From Candidatus Doudnabacteria bacterium (GTDB lineage Bacteria > Patescibacteriota > Doudnabacteria > UBA920 > O2-02-FULL-48-8): a stretch of DNA of 64,000 nucleotides. The DNA lies in contig JANWIA010000022.1 in the NCBI GenBank assembly GCA_025450105.1, positions 5,630 through 69,629 on the forward strand. The letters are read 5' to 3'. This document shows, piece after piece, positions 522 to 57,733 of the stretch. Below the pieces are notes generated by a model, which saw nothing but the letters and a program-made list of their open reading frames with translations, searched no databases and had not been told where the DNA came from. The position numbers were made by a program, and so were the translations under genes. How positions within the stretch are numbered: position 1 is the first letter of the stretch; every line of letters starts with the position of its first letter.

Positions 522-566
522 CAGTAATTAATAAACCATCCCTGCGAAAGCAGGGATTTCAATTCC

Positions 567-620
567 ATCCTGAATTTATTTCAGGATCTAAAATGAAAGA
601 TCCCGAAACAAGTTCGGGAT
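567..620. repeat. Palindromic hairpin repeat units (atcctgaa-tttat-ttcaggat; atcccgaa-acaag-ttcgggat) between convergent genes
   Basis: Perfect 8-bp inverted arms; members of the dispersed family. Confidence 0.7.
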
Positions 621-18460: not shown

Positions 18461-18510
18461 ATCCTGACGGATGTCAGGATATAAAACAGATCCTGAAACA
18501 AGTTCAGGAT
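18461..18510. repeat. Palindromic hairpin repeat units (atcctgac-ggat-gtcaggat; atcctgaa-acaag-ttcaggat)
   Basis: Same family. Confidence 0.7.
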
Positions 18511-23393: not shown

Positions 23394-24545
23394 CTATTCT
23401 TTGGTTCGGTCCTGATAATTTTCTAGTAAGTGGTCAAATTTTTCGGTTTCGATTGTTTCGCGGATCCGCGTCATGAGATTTAAATAGAATCGGAGGTTGT
23501 GCATGGTCGCTAAACGAATTCCGAGTGGTTCTTGTGAGGCCAACAAATGGCGGATATAAGCGCGAGTAAAGTTCATGCAGCCGTAGCAATTACAGGCATT
23601 ATCAACTGGCGTAAAATCTTCCTTAAATTTTTCGTTCATGATATTCATGGTCACGTAGCCTTCACCTTCGCCTGGTTTGAGGTTAACATAAAACTTTCCA
23701 TGTCGCGCTTCGCGGGTTGGAATAACACAATCAAAACTGTCGCAGCCAAGTCCCACTGCGCGGACAATTTGTTCCGGCGTTCCCACGCCAAGTAAGTGCT
23801 TGGGTTTTTCTTCTTCCAAATGCGGCATGGAATAACTTACGGCGTCATACATTCGCTGTGGGTCTTCACCGCCGTTGGCCACGCCACCAATGCAATAGCC
23901 GGGAAAATCGAGACTGCGAATTTCTTCTGCGGATTGTTTTCGTAAATCCGGAAAAATTGCGCCCTGAACAATTCCCCATTGCATTTGACCGGGATTGATA
24001 GAATTCGCCACTAATTTTTTATGTTCTTCCTTGGCACGCGCCGCCCACATACTGGTGCGCTCCACCATTGCGCGAACGACTTCCTTGTCGGCCAATGCGC
24101 CGGGAAACTCATCCAAAACAAGTGCTATGTCTGAACCCAAATTCAATTGGATCTGCACGGATTTTTCTGGCGTCAAAATAAAAGTGCTGCCATCAACTTC
24201 GGACTGGGATTGCACGCCGTTATCGGAAGTCTTAACCATTTTGGCCAAAGAAAAAACTTGGAACCCGCCGGAGTCGGTAAAAATTGCGGATTTCCAGTTC
24301 ATGAACTTGTGCAGGCCGCCGGCTTTGGCAATCAAAGCGTCACCCGGCCGCTGCCACAAATGGTAAGTGTTGGCTAAAATCATTTCCGCGCCCCAAAATT
24401 TTAATTCTTCCGCGGCAATGGATTTAATGGCACCCTTAGTGCCAATGGGGTTAAACACCGGTGTCTTCACATCACCATGCGCCGTGTGAATGACCCCCAG
24501 CCTGGCCTTGCTCTTTGAATCTTTTTTGAGAATTGTAAATGACAT
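23394..24545 (-). CDS. tgt: Queuine tRNA-ribosyltransferase (tRNA-guanine transglycosylase)
   Basis: Full-length Tgt similarity; Zn site CxCxxC...H near C-terminus (CNCYGCMNFTRAYIRHL). Confidence 0.9.
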   Translation of the reverse strand: MSFTILKKDSKSKARLGVIHTAHGDVKTPVFNPIGTKGAIKSIAAEELKFWGAEMILANTYHLWQRPGDALIAKAGGLHKFMNWKSAIFTDSGGFQVFSLAKMVKTSDNGVQSQSEVDGSTFILTPEKSVQIQLNLGSDIALVLDEFPGALADKEVVRAMVERTSMWAARAKEEHKKLVANSINPGQMQWGIVQGAIFPDLRKQSAEEIRSLDFPGYCIGGVANGGEDPQRMYDAVSYSMPHLEEEKPKHLLGVGTPEQIVRAVGLGCDSFDCVIPTREARHGKFYVNLKPGEGEGYVTMNIMNEKFKEDFTPVDNACNCYGCMNFTRAYIRHLLASQEPLGIRLATMHNLRFYLNLMTRIRETIETEKFDHLLENYQDRTKE

Positions 24546-24565: not shown

Positions 24566-24635
24566 ATCCCGAATTTGACCCGTCTGACGGGTCTTGTTTC
24601 GGGATCCAAAATAAGATCCTGACATTCGTCAGGAT
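24566..24635. repeat. Composite palindromic repeat: atcccgaa...ttcgggat enclosing gacccgtc-t-gacgggtc, followed by atcctgac-attc-gtcaggat
   Basis: Same family; nested structure. Confidence 0.7.
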
Positions 24636-26358: not shown

Positions 26359-26444
26359 ATCCCGAACTTATTTCGGGATCTTTTTTTAAGAGATCCTGAA
26401 ATGAATTCAGAATGGTATTAATAATCCCCGCTCGTGCGGAGATT
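26359..26444. repeat. Palindromic repeat units (atcccgaa-cttat-ttcgggat; degenerate atcctgaa..ttcagaat; atccccgc..gcggagat)
   Basis: Same family. Confidence 0.6.
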
Positions 26445-29188: not shown

Positions 29189-29755
29189 TTACTGTTCCAT
29201 CATTTTAATAAACAAACCACGATTGTCTCGAAGTTGTTGCAGTAATGCTCCGTTAATCAAAACAATATCTTTTTTCTTGGACGCCCAGTCCACTGCCCTA
29301 CTACTAAACCTACTTGTTGTAAAAATAAAAACCTTATCATATCCACCGTACGACTTTACTCCATACATATCCCGGACAACAGTTTCATCTACGTTTCGCC
29401 ACTTGCCGTATTTTTTACACTGAACACAAAATCTTTTTCCTTTATATTTAACTTCTACATCAATACCATGATCAAACCCAGTTTTAGCCTCACGTTTAGA
29501 TAAAACTGCTTCAGCGCCAGCATTTATAAAAAGACCTTGCACCCAAACTTCGAATGCTTCCGGAGTTAAGCCTTTAATTAAATTATGGACTCTTCCGTGC
29601 TTTAACATTAAAGTTCTTGCGCGCTTCTTTCTGTATTCATATCGAAGCAATAATAAAAGGATGATAAACAAAATTATCATTCCTAGTGCTATAGCAAGAT
29701 TAAGTGAACTGATTCCTGAACTATTTTGTAATGACGGATTTAAATATGTAGTCAT
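29189..29755 (-). CDS. Membrane-anchored Mrr-like restriction endonuclease catalytic-domain (PD-(D/E)xK) protein
   Basis: One N-terminal TM, then FEVWVQGLF...GFDHGIDVEVKYKGKRFCVQCKKY resembling the Mrr_cat core. Confidence 0.55.
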   Translation of the reverse strand: MTTYLNPSLQNSSGISSLNLAIALGMIILFIILLLLLRYEYRKKRARTLMLKHGRVHNLIKGLTPEAFEVWVQGLFINAGAEAVLSKREAKTGFDHGIDVEVKYKGKRFCVQCKKYGKWRNVDETVVRDMYGVKSYGGYDKVFIFTTSRFSSRAVDWASKKKDIVLINGALLQQLRDNRGLFIKMMEQ

Positions 29756-32485: not shown

Positions 32486-32677
32486 ACAAGATCGCCTTCT
32501 TTGTCATTGCGAGGAGCCGAAGGCGACGTGGCAATCTTTTTCATAGAAATGATTGCTTCGCTTCGCTCGCAATGACAGGAGATGAGCTTGTATCACCTGT
32601 GCGTTCTATCTACTTGGCGGAATTAATTATTTTTATACTTAAGGCCATAAAGCAAACGCGTTATGGCCTTAGATAAT
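32486..32677 (-). promoter_or_regulatory. Structured rpsO-pnp intergenic leader with a long imperfect hairpin (candidate RNase III / PNPase autoregulation site)
   Basis: 12-bp inverted repeat tgtcattgcgag (32502-32513) / ctcgcaatgaca (32566-32577) plus inner complementary segments. Confidence 0.4.
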
Positions 32678-32944: not shown

Positions 32945-33122
32945 GTGTTTCCTTTGTCACGCAGCGGCCAGGACAAGCCACTCGTCGAATTAATTAAAGT
33001 TACTTTACCACATTTTTCCCTTTTTCGCAAATGTCGCACAACCAATACTTTTTTGCATTGTACGACAATGCTATAATTAATATATGAACTGGATCCTGAC
33101 CTCCGTCAGGATGACAATACTT

Positions 33123-34087: not shown

Positions 34088-34234
34088 ATCCTGACATTCG
34101 TCAGGATGGGTAAAAACATAACCCCATCCTGAATTTATTTCAGGATCTCAATCAGATCCCAAAACAAGACCCGTCTGACGGGTCAAGTTCGAGACGAAAA
34201 AAAACAACATGCAATCGCGGACTTGATCCGCGAT
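34088..34234. repeat. Cluster of four palindromic repeat units downstream of the xer gene
   Basis: atcctgac-attc-gtcaggat, atcctgaa-tttat-ttcaggat, degenerate unit with inserted gacccgtctgacgggtc, atcgcgga-cttga-tccgcgat. Confidence 0.7.
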
Positions 34235-34244
34235 CTAAATAAAA

Positions 34245-34292
34245 ATCCCCGTTCTTGACCCGTGTGACGGGTTTCGCGGGGATTGCTTTTTT
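34245..34292. terminator. Bidirectional terminator built from nested palindromic repeat units between convergent genes
   Basis: atccccg...cggggat stem enclosing gacccgtgtgacgggt, with T-runs on both strands. Confidence 0.5.
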
Positions 34293-36116: not shown

Positions 36117-36166
36117 GATCCCGAAACTAGTTCGGGATGGGTAACCATCCTGATCGATAAGTCAGA
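36117..36166. repeat. Palindromic repeat units (atcccgaa-actag-ttcgggat; degenerate atcctgat..gtcagaat)
   Basis: Same family. Confidence 0.6.
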
Positions 36167-36187
36167 ATGACGTTAGAGGTTGATACG

Positions 36188-36807: not shown

Positions 36808-37749
36808 ATGACTAATAAAGAAACTAAAACAAAAGTTATTACAGTTGCCATCTTCGCGGCAATTTTGGTCGCTTTTTTTGCCCTGCTAATCGGTGACAAC
36901 AACGTCGCGTTGCTCAACCCAAAAGGAATTATCGCCGCCCAACAAAAATCTCTGATAATTACTTTAATTGGCCTAATGCTGATCATTGTTATTCCCGTTC
37001 TGACGGCAACATTTTTTATTTCTTGGAAATACCGCGAAGGTAATCCTGCCTCTGAATACACTCCCAACAAAGTTAACACGCTCACCCAACAACTGACATT
37101 ATGGAGCTTCCCTGTCGTCATCATTTTTTTTATGAGCATAATCATGTGGCAAAGCACTCATAAATTGGATCCGTTCAAACCAATTGCTTCTGCCAACAAA
37201 CCAATAACAATCCAAGTCGTGGCTTTACAATGGAAATGGTTATTTATTTATCCGGAACAGCAAATTGCCACAATAAACTTTGTCCAATTCCCCGAGCAGA
37301 CCCCAATTAACTTTGAACTGACCGCCGACGCGCCAATGAATTCGTTTTGGATTCCGCAATTGGGCGGGCAAATGTATTCCATGCCTGGCATGAAAACGCA
37401 TTTGAATTTGATGGCAACTGAACAAGGGGAATTTGCAGGATCTGCCGCGGAAATTAGCGGCAGCGGATTTGCCGGCATGAAATTTGTTGCCAAATCCAGT
37501 TCGCAACAAGATTTTGATCAATGGATAAAATTTGTAAAAAATTTCAATTCTGCGTTGGACATGGAAGCTTATGAACAAATATCCGAACCTTCGGAATACG
37601 ACCCCGTTGCCTACTATTCCGTGGCCGAAGAAAAGTTATTCGATAATGTTATGATGCAATTCATGCCGCAAGAATCTCACATGCAAACACACAGTATGCT
37701 CGACACGATTCCCGTTCCCCTCCCTCCAAAACCAATTAACACACTATAA
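36808..37749 (+). CDS. cyoA: Cytochrome bo3 ubiquinol oxidase subunit II
   Basis: FWIPQLGGQMYSMPGMKTHLNL block typical of quinol-oxidase subunit II lacking CuA ligands. Confidence 0.85.
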   Translation: MTNKETKTKVITVAIFAAILVAFFALLIGDNNVALLNPKGIIAAQQKSLIITLIGLMLIIVIPVLTATFFISWKYREGNPASEYTPNKVNTLTQQLTLWSFPVVIIFFMSIIMWQSTHKLDPFKPIASANKPITIQVVALQWKWLFIYPEQQIATINFVQFPEQTPINFELTADAPMNSFWIPQLGGQMYSMPGMKTHLNLMATEQGEFAGSAAEISGSGFAGMKFVAKSSSQQDFDQWIKFVKNFNSALDMEAYEQISEPSEYDPVAYYSVAEEKLFDNVMMQFMPQESHMQTHSMLDTIPVPLPPKPINTL

Positions 37750-39711
37750 ATGTTTGGCAAACTCACATTAGCAGCGCTCCCACACGAATGGTTCACGATT
37801 GGCGGCACATTGTTTATGGCCGCATCGGGAATCGTGCTTTTTGCCGCGTTGACCTACTACAAAAAATGGGGCTGGTTGTGGAATGACTGGCTGACTTCCA
37901 CTGACCCAAAAAAAATCGGGATCATGTACGTCATTGTTGCGGCCGCGATGTTTGCGCGCGGCGCCTTGGATGCGGCCATCATCTGGTTTCATCAAGCAAT
38001 TTCGGTTGGACCAAATTCAGGATTGATGGACGCCGATCATTTTCAGCAAATCTTTACCGCCCATGGCGACATCATGATCTTTTTCGTGACCATGGGATTT
38101 TTGTTTGGTTTGCTTAACTACATTGTTCCGCTGCAAATTGGCGCGCGCGACGTGGCCTTCCCGTTCCTGAACACTTTAGGATTCTGGTTGTTTGTTGCCG
38201 GAGCGATTCTCATTAATTTATTCTTTGTCCTTGGCGGGGATTTTGCGGCCACGGGTTGGCTGGCGCAGGCGCCACTGTCGGAACTGGAATTCAGCCCCGG
38301 GGTCGGCGTGGATTATTGGATCTGGAGTTTGCAGGTTTCCGGACTCGGTACGCTGTTGGGCGGCATTAATTTATTAGTGACGATTTTAAAAATGCGCGCG
38401 CCAGGCATGACGCTCATGAAAATGCCGTTGTTTGTTTGGACCACGCTCTGCAGTATGGTCTTAGTCACGACAATTTTCCCAATCCTGACCATGACTATCT
38501 TCCTATTGTTCGTGGACCGGTATTTTGGCATGCACTTTTTTACTACCACCGGCGGCGGCAATCCAATGATGTACACCAACTTAATTTGGATGTGGGGCCA
38601 TCCGGAAGTTTATGTTTTAATTTTACCGGCGTTTGGGATTTATTCGGAAGTTGTCCAAACCTTTAGCCAAAAACGGTTAGCTGGTTACGTGTCGCTGGTT
38701 TGCGGCGCAATCGGCATTTCCATATTGGCGCTTGTCGTTTGGTTGCATCACTTCTTTACCATGGGCGCCGATTCCAATGTCAACGCCTTCTTTGGATTGA
38801 TGACTATGCTCATTGCTATTCCGACTGGTGTGCAAATTTTGAGCTGGCTAGCCACAATGTATAAAGGCAGGATCAAATTCACAACGCCAATGAAATGGTT
38901 TTTGGGATTCGTCAGCACTTTTACTTTTGGCGGCATGGCCGGACTGTTGTTAGCCGCGCCTCCTGCCGATTTCCAACTACATAACAGTTTATTTTTGGTC
39001 GCACACGTCCACACCATGATTGTCGGCGGCGCCCTGTTTGGAATTTTTGCCGGAATTATTTATTGGTTTCCAAAAGTTACCGGCTTCAAGCTTAACGAAA
39101 AAATCGGCAACTACGCATTTTGGTTTTGGCTGGTCGGGTTTTTCCTGTCCTTTACCCCACTTTATATTTTGGGGTTGATGGGCGCCACACGCCGCTTGGA
39201 CCACTATGAAGCATCAACCGGTTGGCAACCGCTGTTTATTGTTTCGGCCATCGGTTTGGTTGTCATTGCCATTGGTTTTGGTTTGCAGCTGTTGCAAATT
39301 TTCGTCAGCTACCTGCAGCGCAAACAAAATGCCGACACCACGGGCGATCCATGGAACGGCCGAACACTGGAATGGATGACCCAGTCCCCGCCGCCGGTTT
39401 ATAATTTTGCGATTGTGCCTCATGTAGAATCCCGCGAACCGCTGTGGGACTTGAAGCAGGCAGGAGGCAGAAGGCAAGAGACAGGACAATACGAAGATAT
39501 TCATATGCCAAAAAATACACCGCTGGGAATTTATACTGCCGGTTTTGCTTTCTTAATTGGTTTTGCTTTTATTTGGCACATTACTTGGTTGGTCATCGTC
39601 GGGTTAATCGGCGCCGTTGCCTGCATGATTTGGCGAACATTTGATGATGAGACGGAATATAAAATTAAAGCCTCAGAACTGGCAAAAATGGAATCAAAAC
39701 GAAACCTATGA
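37750..39711 (+). CDS. cyoB: Cytochrome bo3 ubiquinol oxidase subunit I (heme-copper oxidase)
   Basis: WMWGHPEVYVLILPAFG and His ligand pattern; 653 aa; start overlaps cyoA stop. Confidence 0.95.
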   Translation: MFGKLTLAALPHEWFTIGGTLFMAASGIVLFAALTYYKKWGWLWNDWLTSTDPKKIGIMYVIVAAAMFARGALDAAIIWFHQAISVGPNSGLMDADHFQQIFTAHGDIMIFFVTMGFLFGLLNYIVPLQIGARDVAFPFLNTLGFWLFVAGAILINLFFVLGGDFAATGWLAQAPLSELEFSPGVGVDYWIWSLQVSGLGTLLGGINLLVTILKMRAPGMTLMKMPLFVWTTLCSMVLVTTIFPILTMTIFLLFVDRYFGMHFFTTTGGGNPMMYTNLIWMWGHPEVYVLILPAFGIYSEVVQTFSQKRLAGYVSLVCGAIGISILALVVWLHHFFTMGADSNVNAFFGLMTMLIAIPTGVQILSWLATMYKGRIKFTTPMKWFLGFVSTFTFGGMAGLLLAAPPADFQLHNSLFLVAHVHTMIVGGALFGIFAGIIYWFPKVTGFKLNEKIGNYAFWFWLVGFFLSFTPLYILGLMGATRRLDHYEASTGWQPLFIVSAIGLVVIAIGFGLQLLQIFVSYLQRKQNADTTGDPWNGRTLEWMTQSPPPVYNFAIVPHVESREPLWDLKQAGGRRQETGQYEDIHMPKNTPLGIYTAGFAFLIGFAFIWHITWLVIVGLIGAVACMIWRTFDDETEYKIKASELAKMESKRNL

Positions 39712-40289
39712 TGCACACCGATGCCGGCCATAAAAATGTTTTAGGATTTTGGATCTATTTAATGACCGATCTTTTGATGTTCGCGGTTTTGTTTGCAACC
39801 TACGCCGTGTTGCGCACTAGCACGTTTGGCGGCCCGACCGAAAATGAATTGTTCAGCCTGCCCTTTGTTTTGATCGAAACCATGATCCTTCTAACCAGTA
39901 GTTTTACTGTCGGCGTGGCAATCCTAAACGTTGATCGCGAAAAAAATGCCATAAGGCACGTTGCAACTTGGCTCATCATTACTTTCGTGCTTGGTGTTTC
40001 GTTCTTGGCCATGGAACTCGACGAATTCGGAAAACTTATTGCCGACGGCCACAACTGGCAATCGAGCGCTTTCTTGTCGTCATTCTTTTCCTTGGTTGGC
40101 ACCCATGGCTTGCACATTGCCAGCGGTTTGCTCTGGATCCTGATCATGCTGGTTAAAATGTGGCAGCGCGGAGAAATCAACCACAACACCGCCCGGCAAA
40201 TTACTTTACTAAGCTTATTCTGGCACTTCCTGGATGTCGTTTGGATCTTCATTTTTAGTTTTGTTTATCTAATGGGAGTAGGCTTATGA
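39708..40289 (+). CDS. cyoC: Cytochrome bo3 ubiquinol oxidase subunit III
   Basis: 5-TM subunit III similarity; ATGA overlap with cyoB. Confidence 0.85.
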   Translation: MMHTDAGHKNVLGFWIYLMTDLLMFAVLFATYAVLRTSTFGGPTENELFSLPFVLIETMILLTSSFTVGVAILNVDREKNAIRHVATWLIITFVLGVSFLAMELDEFGKLIADGHNWQSSAFLSSFFSLVGTHGLHIASGLLWILIMLVKMWQRGEINHNTARQITLLSLFWHFLDVVWIFIFSFVYLMGVGL

Positions 40290-40630
40290 ACCACGCCAAA
40301 TTAAAATCCTATATTTTTGGATTCCTATCTTCAGTCATCCTTACCTTGCTAGCCTATTCTTTGGTCAATTTAAACTTGGCCAGTGGGCCGCAATTGACGA
40401 TTGGCATTATGAGCCTGGCCTTTATTCAAGCGTTAGTCCAGTTAGTTTTCTTTTTGCATCTGGGCCGCGAGCAGAGTCCAAAATGGAATCTGGCCGTATT
40501 CCTTTCCACCGCGTCCATGATTTTTTTGGTCATTTTTGCCTCGATTTGGATTATGAACAGTTTAAATTACCGCCACGCCCATCCGGATGACGTCACAAAT
40601 TATATTCTGGAACAAGAAGGAATCCATTAA
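40286..40630 (+). CDS. cyoD: Cytochrome bo3 ubiquinol oxidase subunit IV
   Basis: 3-TM, 114 aa, position in operon; ATGA overlap. Confidence 0.7.
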   Translation: MNHAKLKSYIFGFLSSVILTLLAYSLVNLNLASGPQLTIGIMSLAFIQALVQLVFFLHLGREQSPKWNLAVFLSTASMIFLVIFASIWIMNSLNYRHAHPDDVTNYILEQEGIH

Positions 40631-41484
40631 TGGTCCGCGTCTACTATAATTTGGCCAAGCCTGGTCTTGTTTACGGCAACTGCCTCACCGGCATGGCCGG
40701 TTTTTTATTAGCCTCTCAGGCTCATGTCAATTTTCTGCTCTTGCTCGAAACCATTGCAGGACTTGGATTGGTCATGGCTTCGGCCTGTGTCCTCAATAAT
40801 GTTTATGACGCGGATATTGATTCCAAAATGGAGCGAACCAAAACCCGGGCCACGGTCACCGGTGAAATTTCCAAATTCAACGCATCGATTTACGGAATTT
40901 TGCTCGGCCTTGCCGGCTACTCATTACTTTATTTCTATACCAATCTTTTGACGGTTGGCGTTGCCGCAGTCGGGACCATTGTTTACCTGCTATTTTACTC
41001 TCCGTTCAAACGCCGTTCGACAATGGCCACGATTGTCGGTGGCCTTTCCGGCGCCACCCCGCCGGTAATCGGGTACTGTGCCGTTACTAATAATTTTGAT
41101 TTAGGTGCGCTGCTACTTTTCCTCATTTTATTTTTCTGGCAACTGCCGCACTTTTATGCTATCTCCATTTACCGGCTTGGTGATTATACCGCTGCGGCCG
41201 TGCCCGTCATGTCTGTAAAAAAAGGAATTCGAGTTACCAAATTTAATATTCTTGTTTGTGTGATTGGATTTATTGCCTCTACTATATCGCTCAAACTCTA
41301 CGGTTACATTGGTCTGGTTTCAATAATCATTGTAGGGATTGTCAGTTTGAATTGGCTCCGTCTTGCCTTAAAGGGTTTCAGCGCAGAAAATGATGTAAAG
41401 TGGGCAAGGAAAATGTTTTTCTTTTCCTTGATTGTCCTGCTAACTCTTTCGGCCATGCTTTCTCTAGACGCGCTACTGATTTAA
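40630..41484 (+). CDS. cyoE: Protoheme IX farnesyltransferase (heme O synthase), UbiA family
   Basis: UbiA-type Asp-rich motifs (NNVYDADID); 284 aa; overlaps cyoD stop. Confidence 0.85.
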   Translation: MVRVYYNLAKPGLVYGNCLTGMAGFLLASQAHVNFLLLLETIAGLGLVMASACVLNNVYDADIDSKMERTKTRATVTGEISKFNASIYGILLGLAGYSLLYFYTNLLTVGVAAVGTIVYLLFYSPFKRRSTMATIVGGLSGATPPVIGYCAVTNNFDLGALLLFLILFFWQLPHFYAISIYRLGDYTAAAVPVMSVKKGIRVTKFNILVCVIGFIASTISLKLYGYIGLVSIIIVGIVSLNWLRLALKGFSAENDVKWARKMFFFSLIVLLTLSAMLSLDALLI

Positions 41485-41947: not shown

Positions 41948-42691
41948 ATGTGGTACGCCAACGATAATTACTCAAAAGAAGAACAACTAATTTTAATGGA
42001 ATTGGAATACGATTTGTTTCGCTGCAACCCTGGTCTTCGGGCCATGTGGCAGGATAATTTTCAGGAATATTTCCGTGGCACACTCAACGAGGAATATTGG
42101 AAGTACCGCGAGCGGGCGTGGTTGAGCAAACAAAAACTAAAAGGAAAACGTTTTGGTTTTAAAGATTATGAATGCGCCCATGCTATCGAAGAAATTATCC
42201 AATTGTCTACGCCCGATTCCGAAAACTTGGATTCTGTAACAGATGATCCTGATTTTGAGAAAAAAATAAAAGCCGTTTTCAAGAAAACGGACAGTAAACT
42301 TTTACGTTGGGCCAGGGGTTGGGCCGATTCCCTCATTCCTAAATTAGAAGTCCTCTACCAGGAATCAAACAACATCAATTGCTTTCGAATTTTAGTGAAC
42401 GCACCCTATATCCCGTCGAAAATTGTTTTTGCTTCCGTAGAAAATTACCGTGACTCAAAATTCGAATGCGATTTGCAATGGCGGACGGATAAAATTGGCT
42501 ACAGCCTGGCACTCGCCTCCTTGCGTCGTTGCTTGGAATCTTTGCAGGTATTACATTCGCATCCTAAGACCGAATGCAAATTAAATTACAAAGAATTACT
42601 GGTTAAGGGCTCGCATCTCGAAAATCTTATCCATGATGAGCTATCAAAAATAATTTTGGCTGTGCTGACACATAATCAATTAAAAGATTAG
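41948..42691 (+). CDS. Hypothetical protein (247 aa)
   Basis: ORF only; AT-rich upstream region with inverted repeat. Confidence 0.4.
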   Translation: MWYANDNYSKEEQLILMELEYDLFRCNPGLRAMWQDNFQEYFRGTLNEEYWKYRERAWLSKQKLKGKRFGFKDYECAHAIEEIIQLSTPDSENLDSVTDDPDFEKKIKAVFKKTDSKLLRWARGWADSLIPKLEVLYQESNNINCFRILVNAPYIPSKIVFASVENYRDSKFECDLQWRTDKIGYSLALASLRRCLESLQVLHSHPKTECKLNYKELLVKGSHLENLIHDELSKIILAVLTHNQLKD

Positions 42692-42760
42692 ATCCCGACA
42701 TTCGTCAAGAATGGAGTAAGTAAACATCCCGAACTTGTCCCATCAGACGGGTCAAGTTCT
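42691..42760. repeat. Degenerate palindromic repeat units (atcccgac-attc-gtcaagaat; atcccgaa..cccatcagacgggtc..)
   Basis: Same family, decayed copies. Confidence 0.5.
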
Positions 42761-42765
42761 TGTAT

Positions 42766-43447: not shown

Positions 43448-46400
43448 CTAAACCTTTAAGTCCTGGCTGACCCAGCCGTTGCCTGTGGTAAGTTCTTTTT
43501 GAAGGTGGCGAGGTTGTGGCACATCCCCGGATGTAGATGCATGCAGGTAGTACTTCCCTTTTGGAACCATCATAAAATATCGGCCGCGGAAATCCGACAC
43601 CGCAAAGGTCACGCGGTTGTTGGCGAGATCAGTCAAATAGATTGGGGCCAGGGCCATTGGCAAACCGGTGGCGCTGTTTCTGATGATGCCAAACGGTTTT
43701 GGCCGGATCTTAAGCAGGCGAGCAATGGCAATGAACACAAACAGGACGATCAATCCAAAACTGATGACATCCGGCTGGGCAATATAGCCGGCGACCGTAA
43801 GCGGAAACGCGGCCCAAAATGAGAAATTCGAAAAAGTGATCAAGGCTTTCCTAAACAAAGCCCGGGGCGAAGTTCTGGTTTTGGCAATTGGATCCATCGG
43901 TAAATCTAAATTGGAGCTTTGCTGTGGATTGACCGTAATCATGCCGCCCAAATATATGTCCCCGAATGGCATGTTGGCCATATCGGCAAAAGTTTTTTGG
44001 GTTGGGAATTTATATTTTGGGTGCTCGGCAAAAAATTGAATTTTCTGCTCCGATCCGGCCAGGCCTCGCGGCGAAATCAAAAATGCATACCGCCCATCCG
44101 GGCCGGCAATGGTTGATTCCAAAATTTTTAATCTTTCATTTAAGACATTAACATGGGCATGTGGAATCGGCTGCAAAGTTTTGGAATCAAAAACCACGCC
44201 CCAAGGGTTTCGTTTACGGCGCAACCCCAGCGCTTCCATCAAAGCCAAAATCCAATACTTAAAATAATTAACGCTGTTCAAACCGCTAAGCAAATCAATC
44301 AAAGCAGAACCGGTGGTAATCAACGGCGTGATCAAAAGCAAAAACGTTATAAACCTCAAACTCATCGTCCCACCCGGTACCATCTCCAAAATTTCCTGGG
44401 TCGATTCCTGGACTTGGTCCGGGACAAAACCTTGGGTGAAATCAAACGCCCCGCCAGAACCTTCATCATCTGTATCAACACTGCCCCCGCCATTTGGTCG
44501 GTCGATAGGCGGAGGTGGCGGAGTAATACTTGGCGTTTCCGGATCAGATGGTCCTGGAGGAGTCACCGGTGGCGGTGGCGGCGGATCTGGTAATGGTTCG
44601 TTGGTTTCGGTATCGAATCGTGATGGGCCGCCGGAAGAAGAGTTGTCCAACAAGACAGCCTGTTCCTCGTCAGTGTCATTTGCATAAACAAAAACGGTAT
44701 AAGTCCCTTCAACTGCTCCCGGCGGAATCACAACGGAAAATCCATGATCATCCGGATATCCAGTTACGTCATTAACATCCGGTCTTGGGTCATCGGCGAC
44801 AATAACAATCGGATCAGAGTCAGGAGAAGTCGGGTCTTCAAAATAAATTTCAATCGTTACCGGTGCATCCGGATCGTTTGGATCCACGGCCCAACCAGTG
44901 ATGACCGTGCCGCCATTTGTGCCATTCTCGTCAACGTGACCAATCGGATCGTCATTGCCTGGAGGGATAATTACTGGATCGTGGTCACAAATTACTGGCG
45001 GGGAAACATATAGGCTGTTGATGAACGCCCGGGTTGGCGTGACCAAATTACCGCTTTTGCCATTATTACCGATTAGATCAGCGTAGGCAGTTTGGAAACG
45101 GCGGACTGCATCACGGGTGTTGTCGCCGTAATACTCAACCTCGTGGCCCGGTGAACCAGCGCCACTTAGCGCGACCATGAATCCGTTATCGTTCAAAAAC
45201 CTCTGCAAATATACAACCTGCGGATGTGTTTGCCGATGCGAAATGTTTTCGGAAAATGAAATTTCCGGCGGACGCAACTGTATCGGCGGATACGACACAC
45301 AATCCGGTTCTGCAGGTGGAGGCGGCGGGATCACAACCGGCGGCGGCGGAGGTGGTGGTGGAGTTTCCGCTGCGGTCAGGACAATTGTATCCGACACAAC
45401 TTGCGACGAAGAATTTATATTTTTATAAAAACGAACATAGACAGTATAAGTTCCCGGCTCACAGGTAGATGTGAACTCACAAATGTCCCAGGATATAGTT
45501 TCCTCATAATCCATTTGCTCGTATGGTGACAACAATGAATGATCTGAGATCCTGATGTAGTTGGCATCCGGTCCGCCGGACAAAGTTAAAGTTACATTCC
45601 TGGAATTGGTTGTTGTGTCGCCAGAATTTATCGTCACCCTAAAGCCACCGTTAGGCTCCTGCATACCATTATTATTGTTTCCTCCCCCGCCCCCGTCTGC
45701 TGCGGCAGAAGTTGTGGCGGAATCAGTAACCGCTGAAGTTTCTGTTCCGTCGCCATTGCGGGCTTTCACGGAAAAATTATAAAGCGTGGATGGTGACAAC
45801 GAAGTAGACATCCACGATACACCGTCCGCGACCCAACCCGAATCTGTTGATGCTGTTGTGTTAGCGGCAAAAAATGCCGTACCGGCCGGGTTACTGTTGA
45901 CGTTCCAAGTTGCCGTAATTTGAGAGGATGAATCAACAGTTAATATTAAGGCGCTTGGCGGATTGGCCAAAGTATATGCGCTGCTATTGGCAGAGTTGGC
46001 AGTATTGCCTGCTAAATCTGTGACTGTTACAAAGAAAGTGTACTGGACATTAACGCTTAATCCATTGCTGGCCCACGACGTACCGGCTTGCGCTCCAGAA
46101 CTGGTCGCCGCGGTGGAGTTTTGAATATTATATGGTGCTGCTGCCAAACCAGATAAAGCATCCGAAGCACCGGCAACCGTTGCGGTTATCGATGATGTTG
46201 TAATTGTCCCTGTAGAAACTGTTCCTGCAGTTGGTGCGGCAGTATCAACCTTAAAGGCAATCGCGCCGCTATTGGCGGTCGAATAAGAAGATTCGGCAGC
46301 CGAATTATCAATGGCTTTTACTTGCCAATAGTAGCCGGAGCTGTCGGCCAAGGTTTGCCCGCCTGATCCTGTAGTATACGATCCACCGCCAGCCGCTTGG

Positions 46401-48985
46401 CCAACAGTAAACGAAAAACTTCCCTGCGCCGCCACGGCAGAAGTATAATCAACCACGACTGACGAAAAATCACTCGTGTCGTCGATTTGAATCCTAAAGC
46501 CGACAGTATCCGAACCATCTGGATCACTTAAACTGAAAGTCAGAGTTGGAGTGTTGTCATTCCCCCATGATCCATTGACGTATGAAGCAGGACCCAAAGA
46601 TCCCGGCGCGTCCGGATTAGTGTTACAACCGATAAAGGTCCAAGCGTTATTGGAAGTGTTAGTCGAACTTTTGGCAGTGATGGTGCCAGCCTGGTCTGTG
46701 GCTGCCACGTCTGTGATGGTTGTGGTCCCGGATCCGGACCAGGTGCGCTGCGTTGGGCTGGAAGAAGATGAAATTGCAATCGCATCGGCGCCGCCGCAAC
46801 CAACGCCGGAACCGTCCAAAGTAATTGTGCCGGAATTGCCGACGTCGCCAGCCAAAGAAATATCCCCCGTCCCGGTATTGCTCCAGGTGCCGCTCGATCC
46901 AATTGTGGTCGCACCTCCAGTGGTCAAATTAAAAGTTGCGCCCTGGTCAAAAGTTCCGGATGCGACTTCAAATGTCCCGCCCAAAACCAAAGCTGTGGCC
47001 TGCGTTAAACTGCTGCCCACGGTTTTATTGACCTTGAGCTTGGCCGAAAATGTTCCGGCCGTTTGGGTGATGGTCTTGTTGCTGCCGCCGGTAAATTCAA
47101 ATGTTAAATTGGACCCGCCCATGGTATTGGTTGAAGCCATGGAAAAATTTCCACCGATAAACCATGTCTTGGCTGAACCAGGGTTAGTGACCGTTCCCAA
47201 AGTTCTGGTGAAATCTCCGGTCACAGTGCAGTCAGCGGCCAAGCCAAGCTCTCCGGCCAAGTTGGTTTTGTTCAATACGACCGAACCCAGTGTGGCTGTA
47301 CCGCAAGTCAATGATGTATCTTCTGTGACTCCATCAAACGTAAAGGCAATTCCATTTGGCAGCAGGTTGCCAGTGTTATCCAGGTTGTTGCGAACACTCA
47401 TAGTAGTAATCCCGGCCGGGAACGACCCGCCGGACAATGTCATGCTTCCATTCATGTCTATTGTCGTGCCGGACATTGTCACAACCGATCCGGTGTTCAT
47501 TGTATAATTCGCATTTATGGTCCAGGTTCCAGTACCGACAGTTATGGTGCCATTGTTGGTAATGCTGGTCGAGCTAGACGTTGGACTGTTCCCAAGCGGC
47601 AAAGTACAGGTCGAACCGATGGTTAATCCCGTAGATGATAAAGACTGGCTAATTGCAGCAGATGCAAAAGTAACCGTACCGCAAGACAACGTACTCGATG
47701 TGCCAGCGCCAGCATCCAGGGTTAATGCAATTCCGTTCGGTAAAAGATTTGCGGTGTTTGTTAGACTCCCGGTTAAACTTAATGTTGCCAGTCCGGCCGG
47801 AAACACCCCGTCAGTTAAAGTCAGGCTACCATTTACATCCATGACTGTTCCACCCATGGTTAAGGTCGATCCGGTATTTTGGGTATAGCTCGCGTTTACT
47901 GTCCAAGTGCCAGTGCCGACGTTGATTGTGCCGTTATTTACAATTGAAAGCGAACTCGATGTCGGGCTGTTTCCAAGTGGCAAAGTACAGTTCGAACCAA
48001 CTGTTAATCCAGTCGCAGACAAACTTTGGCTGATGACCACTGATGCAAAGGTTGCGGTGCCGCAAGAAAGCGTGCTGGTTGCACCTGCGCCACTGTCGAT
48101 GGTCAGAGCAATGTCGTTTGGCAAAAGATTGGCCGTGTTAGTCAAGCTTCCAGTCAGGGTCATTGTCGTGATTCCGGCTGGGAATGATCCGCCGGATAAG
48201 GTCAAACTACCGTTCATATCCAAAGTTGTGCCGCCCATGGTCAAGGTCGATCCACCATTTTGCGTGTAACCCCCGGTAATTGTAAAAGTTCCAGTGCCGA
48301 CGTTGATAGTTCCATTGTTGGTAATAAACCCTTGAGCCGTGGCGCTGTTTCCGAGTGGCAGAGTACAAGCCGAACCGATAGTCGTGGTCGCAACTGTTAG
48401 TGATCCGGTGATGGTCACGGCATTAAACGTCGCGCTATTACAGGCTATGGATTGGTTAACGCCATTGCCGGTATCAAAAAGGACAGTTCCACCATTTGCA
48501 TTGAAGGTTGGACTGCCGCTGATTGTAAAATTATTGTTGATGGAAAAAGTTCCTGAGGTTGAAGTAAAAATTCCACCCGTAAGACTGAAGGTTCCATTAA
48601 GGTCGATGGTTTGTGTAGCGCCGGTAAACGTTCCTGTTGATTGTGAGTAACCAGAAGAACCAATCGTCAAGCTCCGCGCCTGTGTAATTGTCCCGCTATA
48701 ACCAGTACTTATTGTTAATCCGCCGACCGAACCAGCAAACGACCCATCGATGCTGGCATTTGTTGTGGATGTGCTATCAAAAAATGCAATGTCTGAACCA
48801 GTGGGACAAGTATCCGCGCTCCAATTAGCACAAGTACTCCACAGGCCGTCAGTACTGTCGTTGTCCCATGTTCTTGTTGCTGCCCGCGCAGGCCGATCTA
48901 TAATCAAAACGATCACGACCAAAAGAAAAAGCGCTACAGCTAGCGTAATTTTTTTAAAAATTGCTTTTGAGTGGGCTGCTTTCAC
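43448..48985 (-). CDS. Giant (about 1845 aa) cell-surface protein: N-terminal TM/signal, Gly/Thr-rich roughly 130-aa tandem beta-repeats, poly-Pro linkers, peptidoglycan-binding-like domain, C-terminal polytopic membrane anchor with Ig-like modules
   Basis: Repeats TGTFTITGGYTQNGGSTLTMGGT...; PG_binding-like YLQRFLNDNGF...DAVRRFQ; C-terminal hydrophobic helices. Confidence 0.75.
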   Translation of the reverse strand: MKAAHSKAIFKKITLAVALFLLVVIVLIIDRPARAATRTWDNDSTDGLWSTCANWSADTCPTGSDIAFFDSTSTTNASIDGSFAGSVGGLTISTGYSGTITQARSLTIGSSGYSQSTGTFTGATQTIDLNGTFSLTGGIFTSTSGTFSINNNFTISGSPTFNANGGTVLFDTGNGVNQSIACNSATFNAVTITGSLTVATTTIGSACTLPLGNSATAQGFITNNGTINVGTGTFTITGGYTQNGGSTLTMGGTTLDMNGSLTLSGGSFPAGITTMTLTGSLTNTANLLPNDIALTIDSGAGATSTLSCGTATFASVVISQSLSATGLTVGSNCTLPLGNSPTSSSLSIVNNGTINVGTGTWTVNASYTQNTGSTLTMGGTVMDVNGSLTLTDGVFPAGLATLSLTGSLTNTANLLPNGIALTLDAGAGTSSTLSCGTVTFASAAISQSLSSTGLTIGSTCTLPLGNSPTSSSTSITNNGTITVGTGTWTINANYTMNTGSVVTMSGTTIDMNGSMTLSGGSFPAGITTMSVRNNLDNTGNLLPNGIAFTFDGVTEDTSLTCGTATLGSVVLNKTNLAGELGLAADCTVTGDFTRTLGTVTNPGSAKTWFIGGNFSMASTNTMGGSNLTFEFTGGSNKTITQTAGTFSAKLKVNKTVGSSLTQATALVLGGTFEVASGTFDQGATFNLTTGGATTIGSSGTWSNTGTGDISLAGDVGNSGTITLDGSGVGCGGADAIAISSSSSPTQRTWSGSGTTTITDVAATDQAGTITAKSSTNTSNNAWTFIGCNTNPDAPGSLGPASYVNGSWGNDNTPTLTFSLSDPDGSDTVGFRIQIDDTSDFSSVVVDYTSAVAAQGSFSFTVGQAAGGGSYTTGSGGQTLADSSGYYWQVKAIDNSAAESSYSTANSGAIAFKVDTAAPTAGTVSTGTITTSSITATVAGASDALSGLAAAPYNIQNSTAATSSGAQAGTSWASNGLSVNVQYTFFVTVTDLAGNTANSANSSAYTLANPPSALILTVDSSSQITATWNVNSNPAGTAFFAANTTASTDSGWVADGVSWMSTSLSPSTLYNFSVKARNGDGTETSAVTDSATTSAAADGGGGGNNNNGMQEPNGGFRVTINSGDTTTNSRNVTLTLSGGPDANYIRISDHSLLSPYEQMDYEETISWDICEFTSTCEPGTYTVYVRFYKNINSSSQVVSDTIVLTAAETPPPPPPPPVVIPPPPPAEPDCVSYPPIQLRPPEISFSENISHRQTHPQVVYLQRFLNDNGFMVALSGAGSPGHEVEYYGDNTRDAVRRFQTAYADLIGNNGKSGNLVTPTRAFINSLYVSPPVICDHDPVIIPPGNDDPIGHVDENGTNGGTVITGWAVDPNDPDAPVTIEIYFEDPTSPDSDPIVIVADDPRPDVNDVTGYPDDHGFSVVIPPGAVEGTYTVFVYANDTDEEQAVLLDNSSSGGPSRFDTETNEPLPDPPPPPPVTPPGPSDPETPSITPPPPPIDRPNGGGSVDTDDEGSGGAFDFTQGFVPDQVQESTQEILEMVPGGTMSLRFITFLLLITPLITTGSALIDLLSGLNSVNYFKYWILALMEALGLRRKRNPWGVVFDSKTLQPIPHAHVNVLNERLKILESTIAGPDGRYAFLISPRGLAGSEQKIQFFAEHPKYKFPTQKTFADMANMPFGDIYLGGMITVNPQQSSNLDLPMDPIAKTRTSPRALFRKALITFSNFSFWAAFPLTVAGYIAQPDVISFGLIVLFVFIAIARLLKIRPKPFGIIRNSATGLPMALAPIYLTDLANNRVTFAVSDFRGRYFMMVPKGKYYLHASTSGDVPQPRHLQKELTTGNGWVSQDLKV
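47130..48650. repeat. Diverged tandem coding repeats (about 390-nt period, 3.5 or more copies, roughly 75% identity) inside the giant surface-protein gene
   Basis: Antisense ORF translations at 47517 and 47907 are near-identical; direct nucleotide comparison of consecutive 390-nt blocks. Confidence 0.7.
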
Positions 48986-52948: not shown

Positions 52949-53668
52949 TTGGAAGGAGGGTATAGAAACATCATGCAAAAAACAGCAACCTGGACATACG
53001 CAATCACCTGCTACCTCTATCGTGGACTTTCAGTCCTTATAGGAAGGGCTCCAAGCATTCGCGGCAGAGAGAACATCCCTGCGGGCGGTTGCATTGTCGT
53101 TGCCAACCACCGCAGTATCATGGATCCATGGTGCATCTCCTGGTGTTTCACCATGAGCAACGGCATCAAGTGGATGGCAAAAATGGAATCGGTTGACCCC
53201 CGCGACTTTCAAAGACCGGGAGCCGGCTGGATCCGAAACTTCTTTCTGCTGATTGCAGGATGGTTTTCCGCCCAGATCGTCCGCGGATGTGACGTACTGC
53301 TCGTTGATCGCGAAGGTAAAGACCAGGCCCTTAATCTCAAATCGCTTGCTAGAGCCTCCAGGCTCTTGGAAAAGGGTGGGATTGTGGGGATCTTTCCCGA
53401 AGGCGGGATAGACAAAAAGAAGGCCGAAGGGTTCTTCGAAGGGTTTATCTCGTTAGCCAAACGAACTGAAATGCCGATCGTCCCGATCTACATCGACGGG
53501 AAACGAATCGTTATTGGCAAGCCAATCACTTTCGACCTCAAGTGCCACGAACTCAACAACCGGGCACGACTGGCTGCCGATGTCATGAGCCTCATCGATT
53601 CACTCCGAACCGAAGACAACGAGCGCATCAAGCAACTCGTCGCCTCTTTTGCTGGCGCCGGGTATTAA
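52949..53668 (+). CDS. PlsC-family lysophospholipid/lyso-lipid acyltransferase
   Basis: HxxxxD motif (NHRSIMD) and FPEGG block. Confidence 0.75.
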   Translation: MEGGYRNIMQKTATWTYAITCYLYRGLSVLIGRAPSIRGRENIPAGGCIVVANHRSIMDPWCISWCFTMSNGIKWMAKMESVDPRDFQRPGAGWIRNFFLLIAGWFSAQIVRGCDVLLVDREGKDQALNLKSLARASRLLEKGGIVGIFPEGGIDKKKAEGFFEGFISLAKRTEMPIVPIYIDGKRIVIGKPITFDLKCHELNNRARLAADVMSLIDSLRTEDNERIKQLVASFAGAGY

Positions 53669-55626: not shown

Positions 55627-56244
55627 ATGTACCGATATAGCGTGGCTAAATCACCAACAGACAAACAAGGAGTTTTTGCCCTGATCCGAAAAATTTATGG
55701 AATTGAAGGATATTTAACCGGCAACGGGAGTGCTTTTGATAAATATTTGTTGTTGGAAACTTCCATGGTCTTTCGCGGACTGGTAAACAACAAATTATTC
55801 GGGACAATTTCCGTGGTGACAGATTTAGGACACGGTTTGCCCATGGATATTCTTTATAAAAAGGAACTTGAGGCCTTGCGTCAGCAAGGTAAACTCTTAG
55901 CAGAGGTCACGCAGTTTGCTGTTGACCATGACATCATAAAGCAGGAAGACCTTTTTTTTAATTCCCTAAAGCAACTGACTACCGACCTTCCATTGTTTAA
56001 ACTGGTTTTGGATTTTGCAGCGTTTAAAAATCTTGATTTTTTGTGCATAACAGTTAACCCCCGGCACGCCAAATTTTACCAATCCTTGGGGTTTGTTCAA
56101 TTTGGCGAACTTAAATATTATGAGTCCGTTAACAATGCACCGGCACTATTGTATGTTCTGGATTTGCATGAATTCAAAAATAAAAAATTGCCCGGAATTT
56201 TCAAAACATTGTCCGCGCAGCCTGACTTTAGTTTATTTACTTAA
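55627..56244 (+). CDS. Putative acyl-ACP-dependent N-acyltransferase (OlsB/FeeM-like, GNAT-related fold), paralog 1
   Basis: Roughly 60% identical to the 57734-58354 product; length and context; assignment is inferred. Confidence 0.4.
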   Translation: MYRYSVAKSPTDKQGVFALIRKIYGIEGYLTGNGSAFDKYLLLETSMVFRGLVNNKLFGTISVVTDLGHGLPMDILYKKELEALRQQGKLLAEVTQFAVDHDIIKQEDLFFNSLKQLTTDLPLFKLVLDFAAFKNLDFLCITVNPRHAKFYQSLGFVQFGELKYYESVNNAPALLYVLDLHEFKNKKLPGIFKTLSAQPDFSLFT

Positions 56245-56932
56245 GCTCGCTAAAAACGTGCTTGATGTGCTCGTAACAAACCTCGTAACCAGCATCATTT
56301 GGATGCGAGAGGTCGGTGAAAAAATACTTTTTCCTGTCGACAAGCAAAATGTTCGGGTCCTGATCGATCAACAAACAACCGTTACTGGCCGCGACCTTTT
56401 CAAAAACTTCATGGACGCGGGCGGCGCGATAGTTTAAAAAATCCCGTTCCAAAAAGGAGTATAAGGGCATATCACCGGTTTTGCTTGGAACCCAAAAAAC
56501 AATTTGTTTCGATACTGGCTTGAGGTACTCAACTAATTCCTCAAGATTTTTTTTGATCTTTTTCAAACTGGAAAAAGTTACGATATCAATTCCCCCAACC
56601 ATCAAGACCGCCAAATCATAGTGACCTAAATGCTGTTGTTTAAGGTGTTTAATTAACCCCCCAATGTTCAACCGGCTCACAGAATGATTTGTAATATCCG
56701 CAGTTGGCATGTCTCGGCCTAAAATTCCGACCAGGTTCCTTGTCGGGTCGGTAGCGCCAGTGCCGACTAAAAAACTATCGCCGGCAAATAAAATATGGCA
56801 ACTCGGATTTTCTGGATGCTGGGAATAAGGTACAAGCGTTTTGCCCATTAATTTTTTTGGCGAGGCGTAAAAGACAATTCGACTGACTTCGAATAGTACC
56901 AGGCCTGCCAAAATTAGCAAAAAATAAATCAT
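56237..56932 (-). CDS. SGNH/GDSL hydrolase with N-terminal TM, paralog 1
   Basis: GDS block (HILFAGDSFLVGTGA) and DxxH (HPNDAGYE). Confidence 0.65.
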   Translation of the reverse strand: MIYFLLILAGLVLFEVSRIVFYASPKKLMGKTLVPYSQHPENPSCHILFAGDSFLVGTGATDPTRNLVGILGRDMPTADITNHSVSRLNIGGLIKHLKQQHLGHYDLAVLMVGGIDIVTFSSLKKIKKNLEELVEYLKPVSKQIVFWVPSKTGDMPLYSFLERDFLNYRAARVHEVFEKVAASNGCLLIDQDPNILLVDRKKYFFTDLSHPNDAGYEVCYEHIKHVFSELK

Positions 56933-56935
56933 AAT

Positions 56936-57661: not shown

Positions 57662-57680
57662 TTTTTGATTAAAATATTTC

Positions 57681-57723
57681 TTGCATCTATTCTTAATTCA
57701 CATTAGTATTATTATAACATTTA
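57681..57723 (+). promoter_or_regulatory. Candidate sigma70-like promoter (TTGCAT-17-TAGTAT) followed by TATTATAACATT motif; the same motif lies upstream of the paralog at 55595-55610
   Basis: Hexamers with 17-bp spacing, 25 nt upstream of ATG; motif shared between both paralog upstream regions. Confidence 0.35.
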
Positions 57724-57733
57724 TTGATTAAAC

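Follow-up and report, generated by a model that had tools for sequence, protein, structure and literature searches.

Strand-oriented hairpin repeats in a Doudnabacteria-like contig as probable members of the CGTC-tagged REP superfamily

What are the short palindromes that recur between the genes of contig JANWIA010000022.1 (assembly GCA_025450105.1, Candidatus Doudnabacteria bacterium)? The window analyzed here, i.e., the entire stretch of 64,000 nucleotides from position 5,630 to position 69,629 of this contig, carries numerous intergenic hairpins of about 21 nt, which were originally predicted to form a dispersed family with covarying arms, acting as modular bidirectional terminators or as elements similar to repetitive extragenic palindromes (REPs) and bacterial interspersed mosaic elements (BIMEs). 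We find it likely that these hairpins are members of the described superfamily of CGTC-tagged REPs, and the best explanation of the data as a whole, with a rough probability of 0.6, is that repeats of the class comprising CGTC REPs and the dRS3/NTS elements of Neisseria have been amplified in a Patescibacteria (Doudnabacteria-like) genome.

The census of the window comprises 22 hairpin units at nine loci (about 0.3 units per kb; Table 1). All eight loci and all arm pairs of the original prediction were recovered by the hairpin census and by inspection of the loci; the units at 538-557, 32506-32535 and 32552-32573 are additions, and the sequence of the 34088 cluster reads GATCCTGACATTCGTCAGGATGG ... 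CCATCCTGAATTTATTTCAGGATCT ..., as had been described. The strict pattern ATCCYGAM-N3-6-KTCRGGAT matches the window 10 times and none of 100 dinucleotide-preserving shuffles. Maximal open reading frames (ORFs) and a tRNA take up 93% of the window, leaving about 7% as non-coding DNA, and all 22 units were tabulated as intergenic. The sole overlap with an ORF, that of unit 33093-33112 with xerC/D, probably reflects an over-extended 5' end of this ORF, because it spans 332 amino acids here vs. 319 annotated for its counterpart, a tyrosine-recombinase gene beside an ABC-transporter gene in the related locus L011 (orthology being assumed from synteny). Nearly all units (21 of 22) follow the 3' end of one gene or more. 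Five of the nine loci lie between tandem genes, three between convergent genes and one in a divergent promoter region, so that the earlier view of most copies as sitting between convergent genes is not borne out. Clusters contain up to five units in alternating orientations, separated by spacers of 7-20 nt and forming six tail-to-tail and four to five head-to-head dimers. An Rfam scan of the window matched no family except one tRNA. With alternating clusters and compensatory arm changes, the description as a dispersed, intergenic, REP/BIME-like hairpin family stands.

The compensatory nature of the arm changes is well supported. Across 17 scored units with 8-bp stems, 130 of 136 stem positions form Watson-Crick pairs and five form G-T pairs, a level of pairing attained by none of 5000 permutations of the 3' arms. 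The first two pairs are nearly invariant (A-T at position 1 in 16 of 17 units, T-A at position 2 in all 17), and two-sided changes occur at positions 4 to 8, including C-G/T-A in a ratio of 9:8 at position 5, G-C/A-T of 4:13 at position 7 and C-G/A-T of 6:10 at position 8. These pairs were counted by script, since a joint MAFFT alignment of 4-nt- and 5-nt-loop units misplaced a gap. An ungapped alignment of 14 sequences with 5-nt loops (eight from the window and six from elsewhere) led to the same result: both sides change at five of eight pairs, all cells pair, none of 500 shuffles reaches the covariation score, and a shift of the partner by one column lowers pairing to 36-64%. The window copies were chosen as palindromes and fall into a handful of sub-families, and the number of independent events is, hence, smaller than the number of cells. 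As single-stranded DNA (ssDNA), the segment 34080-34300 folds with -49 kcal/mol vs. -24 ± 3 for shuffles (z = -7.95). The claimed covariation of arms was, in this way, confirmed by the covariation test that had been proposed along with it.

A unit is not a plain palindrome, and its oriented anatomy can be written as 5'-(C/A)CC : AT-CCYGAM - loop - KTCRGGAT : CT-3', with colons separating flanks from palindrome. Among 16 core units, the 5' flank is CC in 11 and has C at position -1 in 14, with [ACT]CC as the upstream trinucleotide; the 3' flank has C at position +1 in 15, as CT in 13 and CC in two. Several units carry other ends, namely a CCA tail at 24566 and 33093 and a TGTC tag at 33093, 32506 and 32552. 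The loops fall into few classes, with GAAT (three times), GGAT and GGAG as 4-nt loops and CTTGT, TTTAT, CTTAT, CTAGT, TTCAT and CTTGA as 5-nt loops, and identical loops recur in unrelated organisms and contigs. A covariance model built from the 5-nt-loop units scores 36-46 bits on one strand vs. 9-17 on the other (a difference of about 25-30 bits per unit), and a scan of the window with this model revealed no further copies at E < 0.01. The recurring loop classes, the asymmetric conserved flanks and the strand-biased scores together point to a recognition that would be sequence- and strand-specific as well as structural. The previous argument, by which variable loops indicate selection for a hairpin and not for a protein-binding sequence, is incomplete in this respect.

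This anatomy is already known from other bacteria. Di Nocera, De Gregorio and Rocco (BMC Genomics 2013; PMC3733652) split REPs into GTAG-tagged and CGTC-tagged super-families, and described the latter as having 8-9 bp stems (nearly always AT-initial), loops of few types that measure 4 nt in family 1 and 5 nt in families 2-4, a CGTC tag (often TGTC or CCTC) and a short CCA tail. According to the same authors, CGTC REPs occur mostly as dimers (mainly head-to-head, rarely tail-to-tail) between unidirectional or convergent ORFs, have no dedicated transposase, and are found in Proteobacteria, Chlorobi, Bacteroidetes, Spirochaetes and Thermotogae, the dRS3 element of Neisseria being a CGTC-1 repeat (PMC3733652). 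The window units share with them the 8-bp AT-initial stem, the 4- or 5-nt loops of few types, inverted dimers, intergenic sites between tandem or convergent genes and the lack of a neighbouring transposase; a one-sided tag and a C-initial tail are present too, but mostly read xCC and CT. As judged from sequence, type I units would correspond to CGTC-1-like and type II units to CGTC-2-like repeats. A direct link is provided by the supplement of this work, which lists the intragenic CGTC-2 peptide RHSELVSGS in the ferredoxin-like SUN_0512 of Sulfurovum sp. NBC37-1 (PMC3733652): it back-translates to CGTCATTCTGAACTTGTTTCAGGATC-like DNA, the core of the 5-nt-loop units of the window. The statement that no described family has these arms is not supported, given the match in anatomy to the CGTC-tagged superfamily (PMC3733652), including dRS3/NTS (PMC11893778).

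For dRS3, a recognizing protein has been characterized. The substrate of SsnA, a 94-aa GIY-YIG nuclease, is the oriented form NTS (CGTC-ATTCCCGCG-MAV-GCGGGAAT-CYRG), which the enzyme binds and cleaves solely as ssDNA and on a single strand; it needs the C after the palindrome for binding and three upstream bases for cleavage, and homologues of ssnA in several phyla come together with Ssn-related motifs (SRM) (Chenal et al., Nat Commun 2025; PMC11893778). The window repeats resemble NTS in being oriented hairpins whose palindrome is followed directly by a conserved C and preceded by a short conserved flank, and in forming intergenic clusters, with about 0.3 units in each kb of the window, a value similar to our own estimate for pathogenic Neisseria. 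They differ from it in the stem (ATCCYGAM vs. ATTCCCGC) and the 5' flank (CC vs. GTC), and the window contains neither an ssnA-like gene nor an NTS-gene-NTS arrangement around a nuclease. Hairpins matching the published SRM pattern, HGTCWYN(0-2)YYVSBRHN(0-5)WNVSBRGN(0-2)RNCYNB (PMC11893778), were detected in seven contigs fetched for their window-type units (L010, L019, L043, L048, L076, L095 and L132), with 10 matches vs. 3.7 expected in 756 kb. One of them, TGTCATTCCAGCGAAAGCTGGAATCCAG, is found in the Doudnabacteria relative L010 beside a unit of the window type, and another, TGTCATCCCGGACTTGATCCGGGATCT in L043 and L048, is close to the window unit 34214-34234, from which it differs in a compensatory manner.

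The units are not confined to this genome. A metagenome scan with the pattern AGATCCYGAM-N4-5-KTCRGGATGG yielded at least 120 contigs with one match each, about one-fifth of these loci being chance or coding matches (in ilvC/ilvH and PIN-toxin genes) and the remainder representing cross-organism copies. The exact 21-mer ATCCTGAA-ACAAG-TTCAGGAT is present in many low-G+C and some high-G+C contigs among the matches listed, and its neighbours in metagenome contigs include GAGATGCTGAAACAAGTTCAGCATGACA and GTCATTCCGGACTTGATCCGGAATCT. The core GAA-[CT]T[TA][GA]T-TTC occurs 28 times outside the scan pattern, with five perfectly complementary outer positions in 10 cases and four of five in nine, the alternative outer stems being ATGCT/AGCAT, ATGCC/GGCAT, ATTCC/GGAAT, ATTCT/AGAAT and ACCCT/AGGGT. 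In nearly all occurrences with complementary stems, the palindrome is preceded by [CT]GTC and followed by CT or CC, and these flanks are missing from the non-complementary ones. Elsewhere, then, cores of the window type bear CGTC or TGTC tags and sometimes ACC or GCC. Exact or near-exact copies were also found on plasmids or chromids of Sphingobium, Novosphingobium, Sphingomonas, Treponema saccharophilum (seven to eight places per replicon), Sulfurovum and Tenacibaculum, all from phyla listed for CGTC REPs; the plasmid and chromid copies are mostly in unannotated spacers. The best plasmid match is a ferredoxin-like ORF of Sulfurovum mangrovi that contains CGTCATTCCGGGCTTGACTTGGAATCTC plus GAGATCCTGAATCAAGTTCAGGATGACA; in this 4Fe-4S ferredoxin-like ORF (NZ_CP087125.1, 388346-388494), a CGTC-REP dimer lies in frame and encodes ...PRHSGLDLES...EILNQVQDD....

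Closer relatives display a different repertoire. The window Tgt (23394-24545, minus strand) is 100% identical to a single entry, and all further matches reach at most 87%, the named ones coming from Candidatus Doudnabacteria and other Patescibacteria; the ABC-transporter protein of the window has no close relative among the genome contigs searched (best identity of 63%). Two syntenic loci of related genomes, L010 and L011 (Tgt 87% and 82% identical, respectively; 42 kb together), contain no 5-nt-loop units and only few 4-nt-loop or other units, and their intergenic regions hold mostly ordinary terminators such as AAATTT-ATCCCCGCT-GAAA-AGCGGGGAT-TTTATTT. The search of related genomes for the same arms, suggested earlier, is, hence, positive for cores in unrelated contigs and replicons and negative for 5-nt-loop units in these two loci. 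In turn, the spacer between the VTT and ProRS genes of L010 holds a dimer, and the matching spacer of the window is shorter by about 67 nt. As far as these loci indicate, unit content turns over between related genomes, because L010 and L011 lack the 5-nt-loop units and yet the dimer of L010 is absent from the shorter window spacer.

How might such repeats be recognized? A unit would fold when DNA becomes single-stranded (during replication, repair or uptake of foreign DNA), and a protein reading both sequence and structure would recognize the folded form. By analogy with NTS, this protein could be a small GIY-YIG nuclease of the Ssn type, which would bind the hairpin together with the 3' C and cut a few bases upstream; such recognition may influence how incoming DNA recombines and perhaps propagate the repeats. 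An Ssn-type partner in this genome, proposed on the strength of the analogy, is a tentative possibility about which we are rather more doubtful than hopeful. In one fetched locus (L052), a GIY-YIG gene lies 1.2 kb from a unit and is not flanked by units, and clustering of ORFs within 1.5 kb of units at 120 loci revealed no recurrent nuclease or transposase.

Several observations weigh against the assignment to the CGTC-REP/NTS class or against its Ssn component. The window tag is mostly xCC (ACC, CCC or TCC) and not CGTC, TGTC or CCTC, the tail is CT(N) and not CCA, and tail-to-tail dimers (six) exceed head-to-head ones (four to five), albeit in a small sample. None of the 22 units matches the SRM pattern, whose sole match in the window (53260-53294) is an unrelated site off all units. 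Regular expressions, phmmer and a search of the small ORFs against Pfam detected no GIY-YIG or Y1-transposase gene in the 64 kb, and the best E was 0.53 when a GIY-YIG profile of five sequences was run against all six-frame ORFs of the window. Small GIY-YIG proteins, including homologues of the one in L052, are numerous and strongly conserved in Patescibacteria, but they are closest to solved UPF0213 proteins and can be assigned to the Ssn family (cd10448) only tentatively. Three loci encoding such proteins in the candidate phyla radiation (CPR) have no such hairpins within 10 kb, and GIY-YIG genes on records of Sphingomonas, Legionella, Acidiphilium and N. gonorrhoeae have no flanking units within 2-3 kb. 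For the GAA-CTTGT-TTC type, the link to Ssn would hold by analogy only. Two further differences from described CGTC REPs concern the host phylum, Patescibacteria, which lies outside the five reported, and the nested 15-nt palindrome in some loops. Patescibacteria are mentioned in neither of the two papers (PMC3733652; PMC11893778), and we found no report of CGTC/NTS-type repeats in this phylum. Searches of the literature with DNA or peptide strings retrieved nothing.

Could the hairpins instead act at the RNA level, as intrinsic, partly bidirectional terminators or mRNA-stabilizing structures of a lineage-typical design? The location of 21 of 22 units downstream of a gene speaks for this, as do the T-rich 3' flank at about six of the 22 units, the recurrent G-T pairs of some variants (ATGCT/AGTAT), the ATCC..GC-GAAA-GC..GGAT terminators with T-runs employed by relatives (L011), and the case made for many REPs being transcribed and functioning as RNA (PMC3733652). 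The proposed modular bidirectional terminators followed by T-runs are not what most units look like: a T-run is a feature of 34245-34283 (where A- and T-tracts stand on both sides), weakly of 538-557, and about five repeat units have T-rich tails. One unit lies upstream of genes, in a divergent promoter region, and clusters comprise as many as five units of either orientation, more than termination needs. A generic terminator also requires neither the loops nor the asymmetric flanks that are kept across phyla of very different G+C, unrelated ordinary terminators exist elsewhere in the window (e.g., at 28989, 30174, 58987 and 61529), and SsnA fails to bind the RNA form of NTS (PMC11893778). Terminators do seem to form part of the census. 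The hairpins at 538, 26424 and 34245 are probably ordinary terminators and not family members, with ATCCCYGC-type stems, GNRA-like loops and A/T tracts like the terminators of relatives; only such ATCCCYGC-GAAA-type hairpins have the look of ordinary terminators, 538-557 seeming but loosely related to the repeat family. Unit 34245-34283 probably acts as a bidirectional terminator for both xerC/D and the ABC-transporter gene, and it seems to correspond to the terminator that follows the latter gene in L011. For the repeat units, termination is at most a side role, and we regard a purely RNA-level explanation of the family as unlikely.

The CGTC-REP assignment also has to be set against two readings in which a different protein acts on the palindromes. 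A GT[AG]G tag is the defining mark of REPs associated with RAYT, an IS200/IS605-like Y1 transposase. Mobilization of the window units by RAYT, as for classical REP/BIME elements or REPINs, might be suspected from their short extragenic palindromes, the compensatory variation of stems and the alternating mosaics, all shared with enterobacterial and Pseudomonas elements, and from inverted dimers that can fold into larger hairpins. The window units, however, bear xCC or TGTC in place of GTAG or GTGG, their stems are shorter and perfect and their loops very short, no Y1_Tnp domain is found among the small ORFs of the window, and CGTC repeats were never found flanking a tyrosine-transposase gene (PMC3733652), which together render this origin highly improbable. 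Still less credible, in our estimation, are double-stranded operator sites of a dimeric regulator, with hairpin potential as a by-product of dyad symmetry: intergenic dyads of 8+8 bp around a centre of 4-5 bp would suit such sites, but stems change in a compensatory manner across copies and organisms at constant loops and asymmetric flanks, the units are strand-oriented, and they are located mostly at gene 3' ends in multi-copy clusters. Other identities were considered and rejected: a CRISPR array for its irregular spacing, miniature inverted-repeat transposable elements for unit ends that show neither terminal repeats nor target duplications and a size of only 20-40 nt, DNA uptake sequences for the covarying stems, and xerC/D recombination sites for a 4-5 nt centre that is too short, the xerC/D gene itself being a conserved syntenic housekeeping gene.

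One feature of the window goes beyond the described class. A 15-nt palindrome, ACCCGTCWGACGGGT, is present in four copies (24578-24592, 34169-34183, 34258-34272 and 42737-42751), all inside loops of larger hairpins; three of the copies are bordered on either side by a CTTG-type tetranucleotide, which in one copy forms an exact CTTG repeat. Type III units can be described as type II plus 19 nt, i.e., this palindrome and a second loop tetranucleotide CTTG (the upstream copy being TTTG at 24566), and in 34245-34283 the same palindrome splits the loop of a terminator whose apparent L011 counterpart is uninterrupted. None of the other fetched loci contains this palindrome. Such a distribution could be that of an ultra-small mobile module inserting into single-stranded hairpin loops, and the module and the xCC tag could reflect an enzyme of new specificity, or a non-Ssn enzyme, that cuts and pastes these elements in a CPR genome; that the lineage hosts an active, undescribed hairpin-targeted process is, in our view, quite improbable.

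Table 1. Hairpin units of the 64-kb window. Type I, 4-nt loop; type II, 5-nt loop; type III, type II with a nested 15-nt palindrome in the loop; in unit formulas, a colon separates flanks from palindrome.
Positions	Strand	Unit	Context and remarks
538-557	+	ATCCCTGC-GAAA-GCAGGGAT hairpin	16 nt past stop of 57-521 ORF; GNRA loop
567-587	+	Type II, cc:ATCCTGAA-TTTAT-TTCAGGAT:ct	Tail-to-tail with 600-620; 43.3 bits on +, 17.4 on -
600-620	-	Type II, cc:ATCCCGAA-CTTGT-TTCGGGAT:ct	45.8 bits on -, 11.9 on +
18461-18480	+	Type I, cc:ATCCTGAC-GGAT-GTCAGGAT:at	Between tandem nfo and AI-2E transporter genes
18490-18510	-	Type II, ca:ATCCTGAA-CTTGT-TTCAGGAT:ct	Tail-to-tail with 18461-18480
24566-24605	+	Type III, nested palindrome ACCCGTCTGACGGGT with flanks TTTG/CTTG	
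24616-24635	-	Type I, cc:ATCCTGAC-GAAT-GTCAGGAT:ct	Tail-to-tail with 24566-24605; upstream of tgt
26359-26379	+	Type II, cc:ATCCCGAA-CTTAT-TTCGGGAT:ct, then T7	
26393-26413	-	Type II with one T-G pair, cc:ATTCTGAA-TTCAT-TTCAGGAT:ct	
26424-26443	+	Degenerate hairpin ATCCCCGC-TCGT-GCGGAGAT, terminator-like type	
32506-32535	+	Other class, canonical tag, tgtc:ATTGC-GAGGAGCCGAAGGCGACGTG-GCAAT:ct	rpsO-pnp spacer
32552-32573	-	ATTGC class, tgtc:ATTGC-GAGCGAAGCGAA-GCAAT:c	Tail-to-tail with 32506-32535
33093-33112	-	Type I, canonical tag and tail, tgtc:ATCCTGAC-GGAG-GTCAGGAT:cca	Divergent rpsO/xerC-D promoter region
34088-34107	-	Type I, cc:ATCCTGAC-GAAT-GTCAGGAT:ct	First in its cluster; 5 nt past xerC/D stop
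34126-34146	+	Type II, cc:ATCCTGAA-TTTAT-TTCAGGAT:ct	Head-to-head with 34088-34107
34156-34195	-	Degenerate type III, arms GTCTCGAA/TTTGGGAT, nested palindrome ACCCGTCAGACGGGT, CTTG on both sides	
34214-34234	+	Covarying 5-nt-loop unit, ca:ATCGCGGA-CTTGA-TCCGCGAT:ct	36.5 bits
34245-34283	none assigned	Outer stem ATCCCCG/CGGGGAT, loop insert ACCCGTGTGACGGGT	Flanking A-tract and T-tract
36118-36138	-	Type II, cc:ATCCCGAA-CTAGT-TTCGGGAT:ct	
36147-36168	+ (orientation uncertain)	Degenerate, ATCCTGA-TCGATAAG-TCAGAAT	
42692-42712	-	Degenerate type I, cc:ATTCTTGAC-GAAT-GTCGGGAT:ct	Abuts stop of 41948-42691 ORF
42726-42765	+	Degenerate type III, ATCCCGAA-CTTG-TCCCATCAGACGGGT-CAAG-TTCTTGTAT	

The two units of the ATTGC class at 32506 and 32552 have an inner GAGCGAAGCGAAG module, and covarying relatives with outer stems ATTCT/AGAAT and ATCCT/AGGAT occur in L010 and L012, respectively. 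Other genes of the window deserve brief mention. A complete operon for a cytochrome bo3-type quinol oxidase (36808-41484, plus strand; COX2/COX_ARM, COX1, COX3, COX4_pro and a UbiA-family haem O synthase) sits in this genome, which groups with Candidatus Doudnabacteria by its Tgt; CPR bacteria do not usually have respiratory oxidases. Adjoining the first repeat cluster, a 758-aa PAS-GGDEF-EAL protein of cyclic di-GMP turnover is encoded at 644-2920 (minus strand). The minus strand also encodes a 188-aa protein with an N-terminal hydrophobic segment followed by an Mrr_cat (PD-(D/E)xK restriction-endonuclease-like) domain (29189-29755), for which no link to the repeats was found, and a 1845-aa ORF with repetitive Thr/Ser/Gly-rich segments and proline-rich stretches (43448-48985). 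At 55627-58354, a two-gene module appears from the translations to be duplicated in inverted orientation, with 55627-56244/57734-58354 and 56237-56932/56936-57661 as clear paralogue pairs.

Overall, the class of these repeats, their anatomy and their spread across phyla have already been published, and the window units probably extend this class to a new phylum with a variant tag. At the level of annotation, such units give rise to spurious ORFs and may pass for terminators, and their recognition improves the annotation of genomes that carry them. CPR/Patescibacteria genomes are small and streamlined, and these bacteria are thought to rely on the uptake of foreign DNA. If an Ssn-type nuclease does read the units, they would be part of a system policing single-stranded incoming DNA in episymbionts, and this nuclease would add a new specificity (xCC tag and ATCCYGAM stem) to a family that has been proposed as a source of ssDNA tools.

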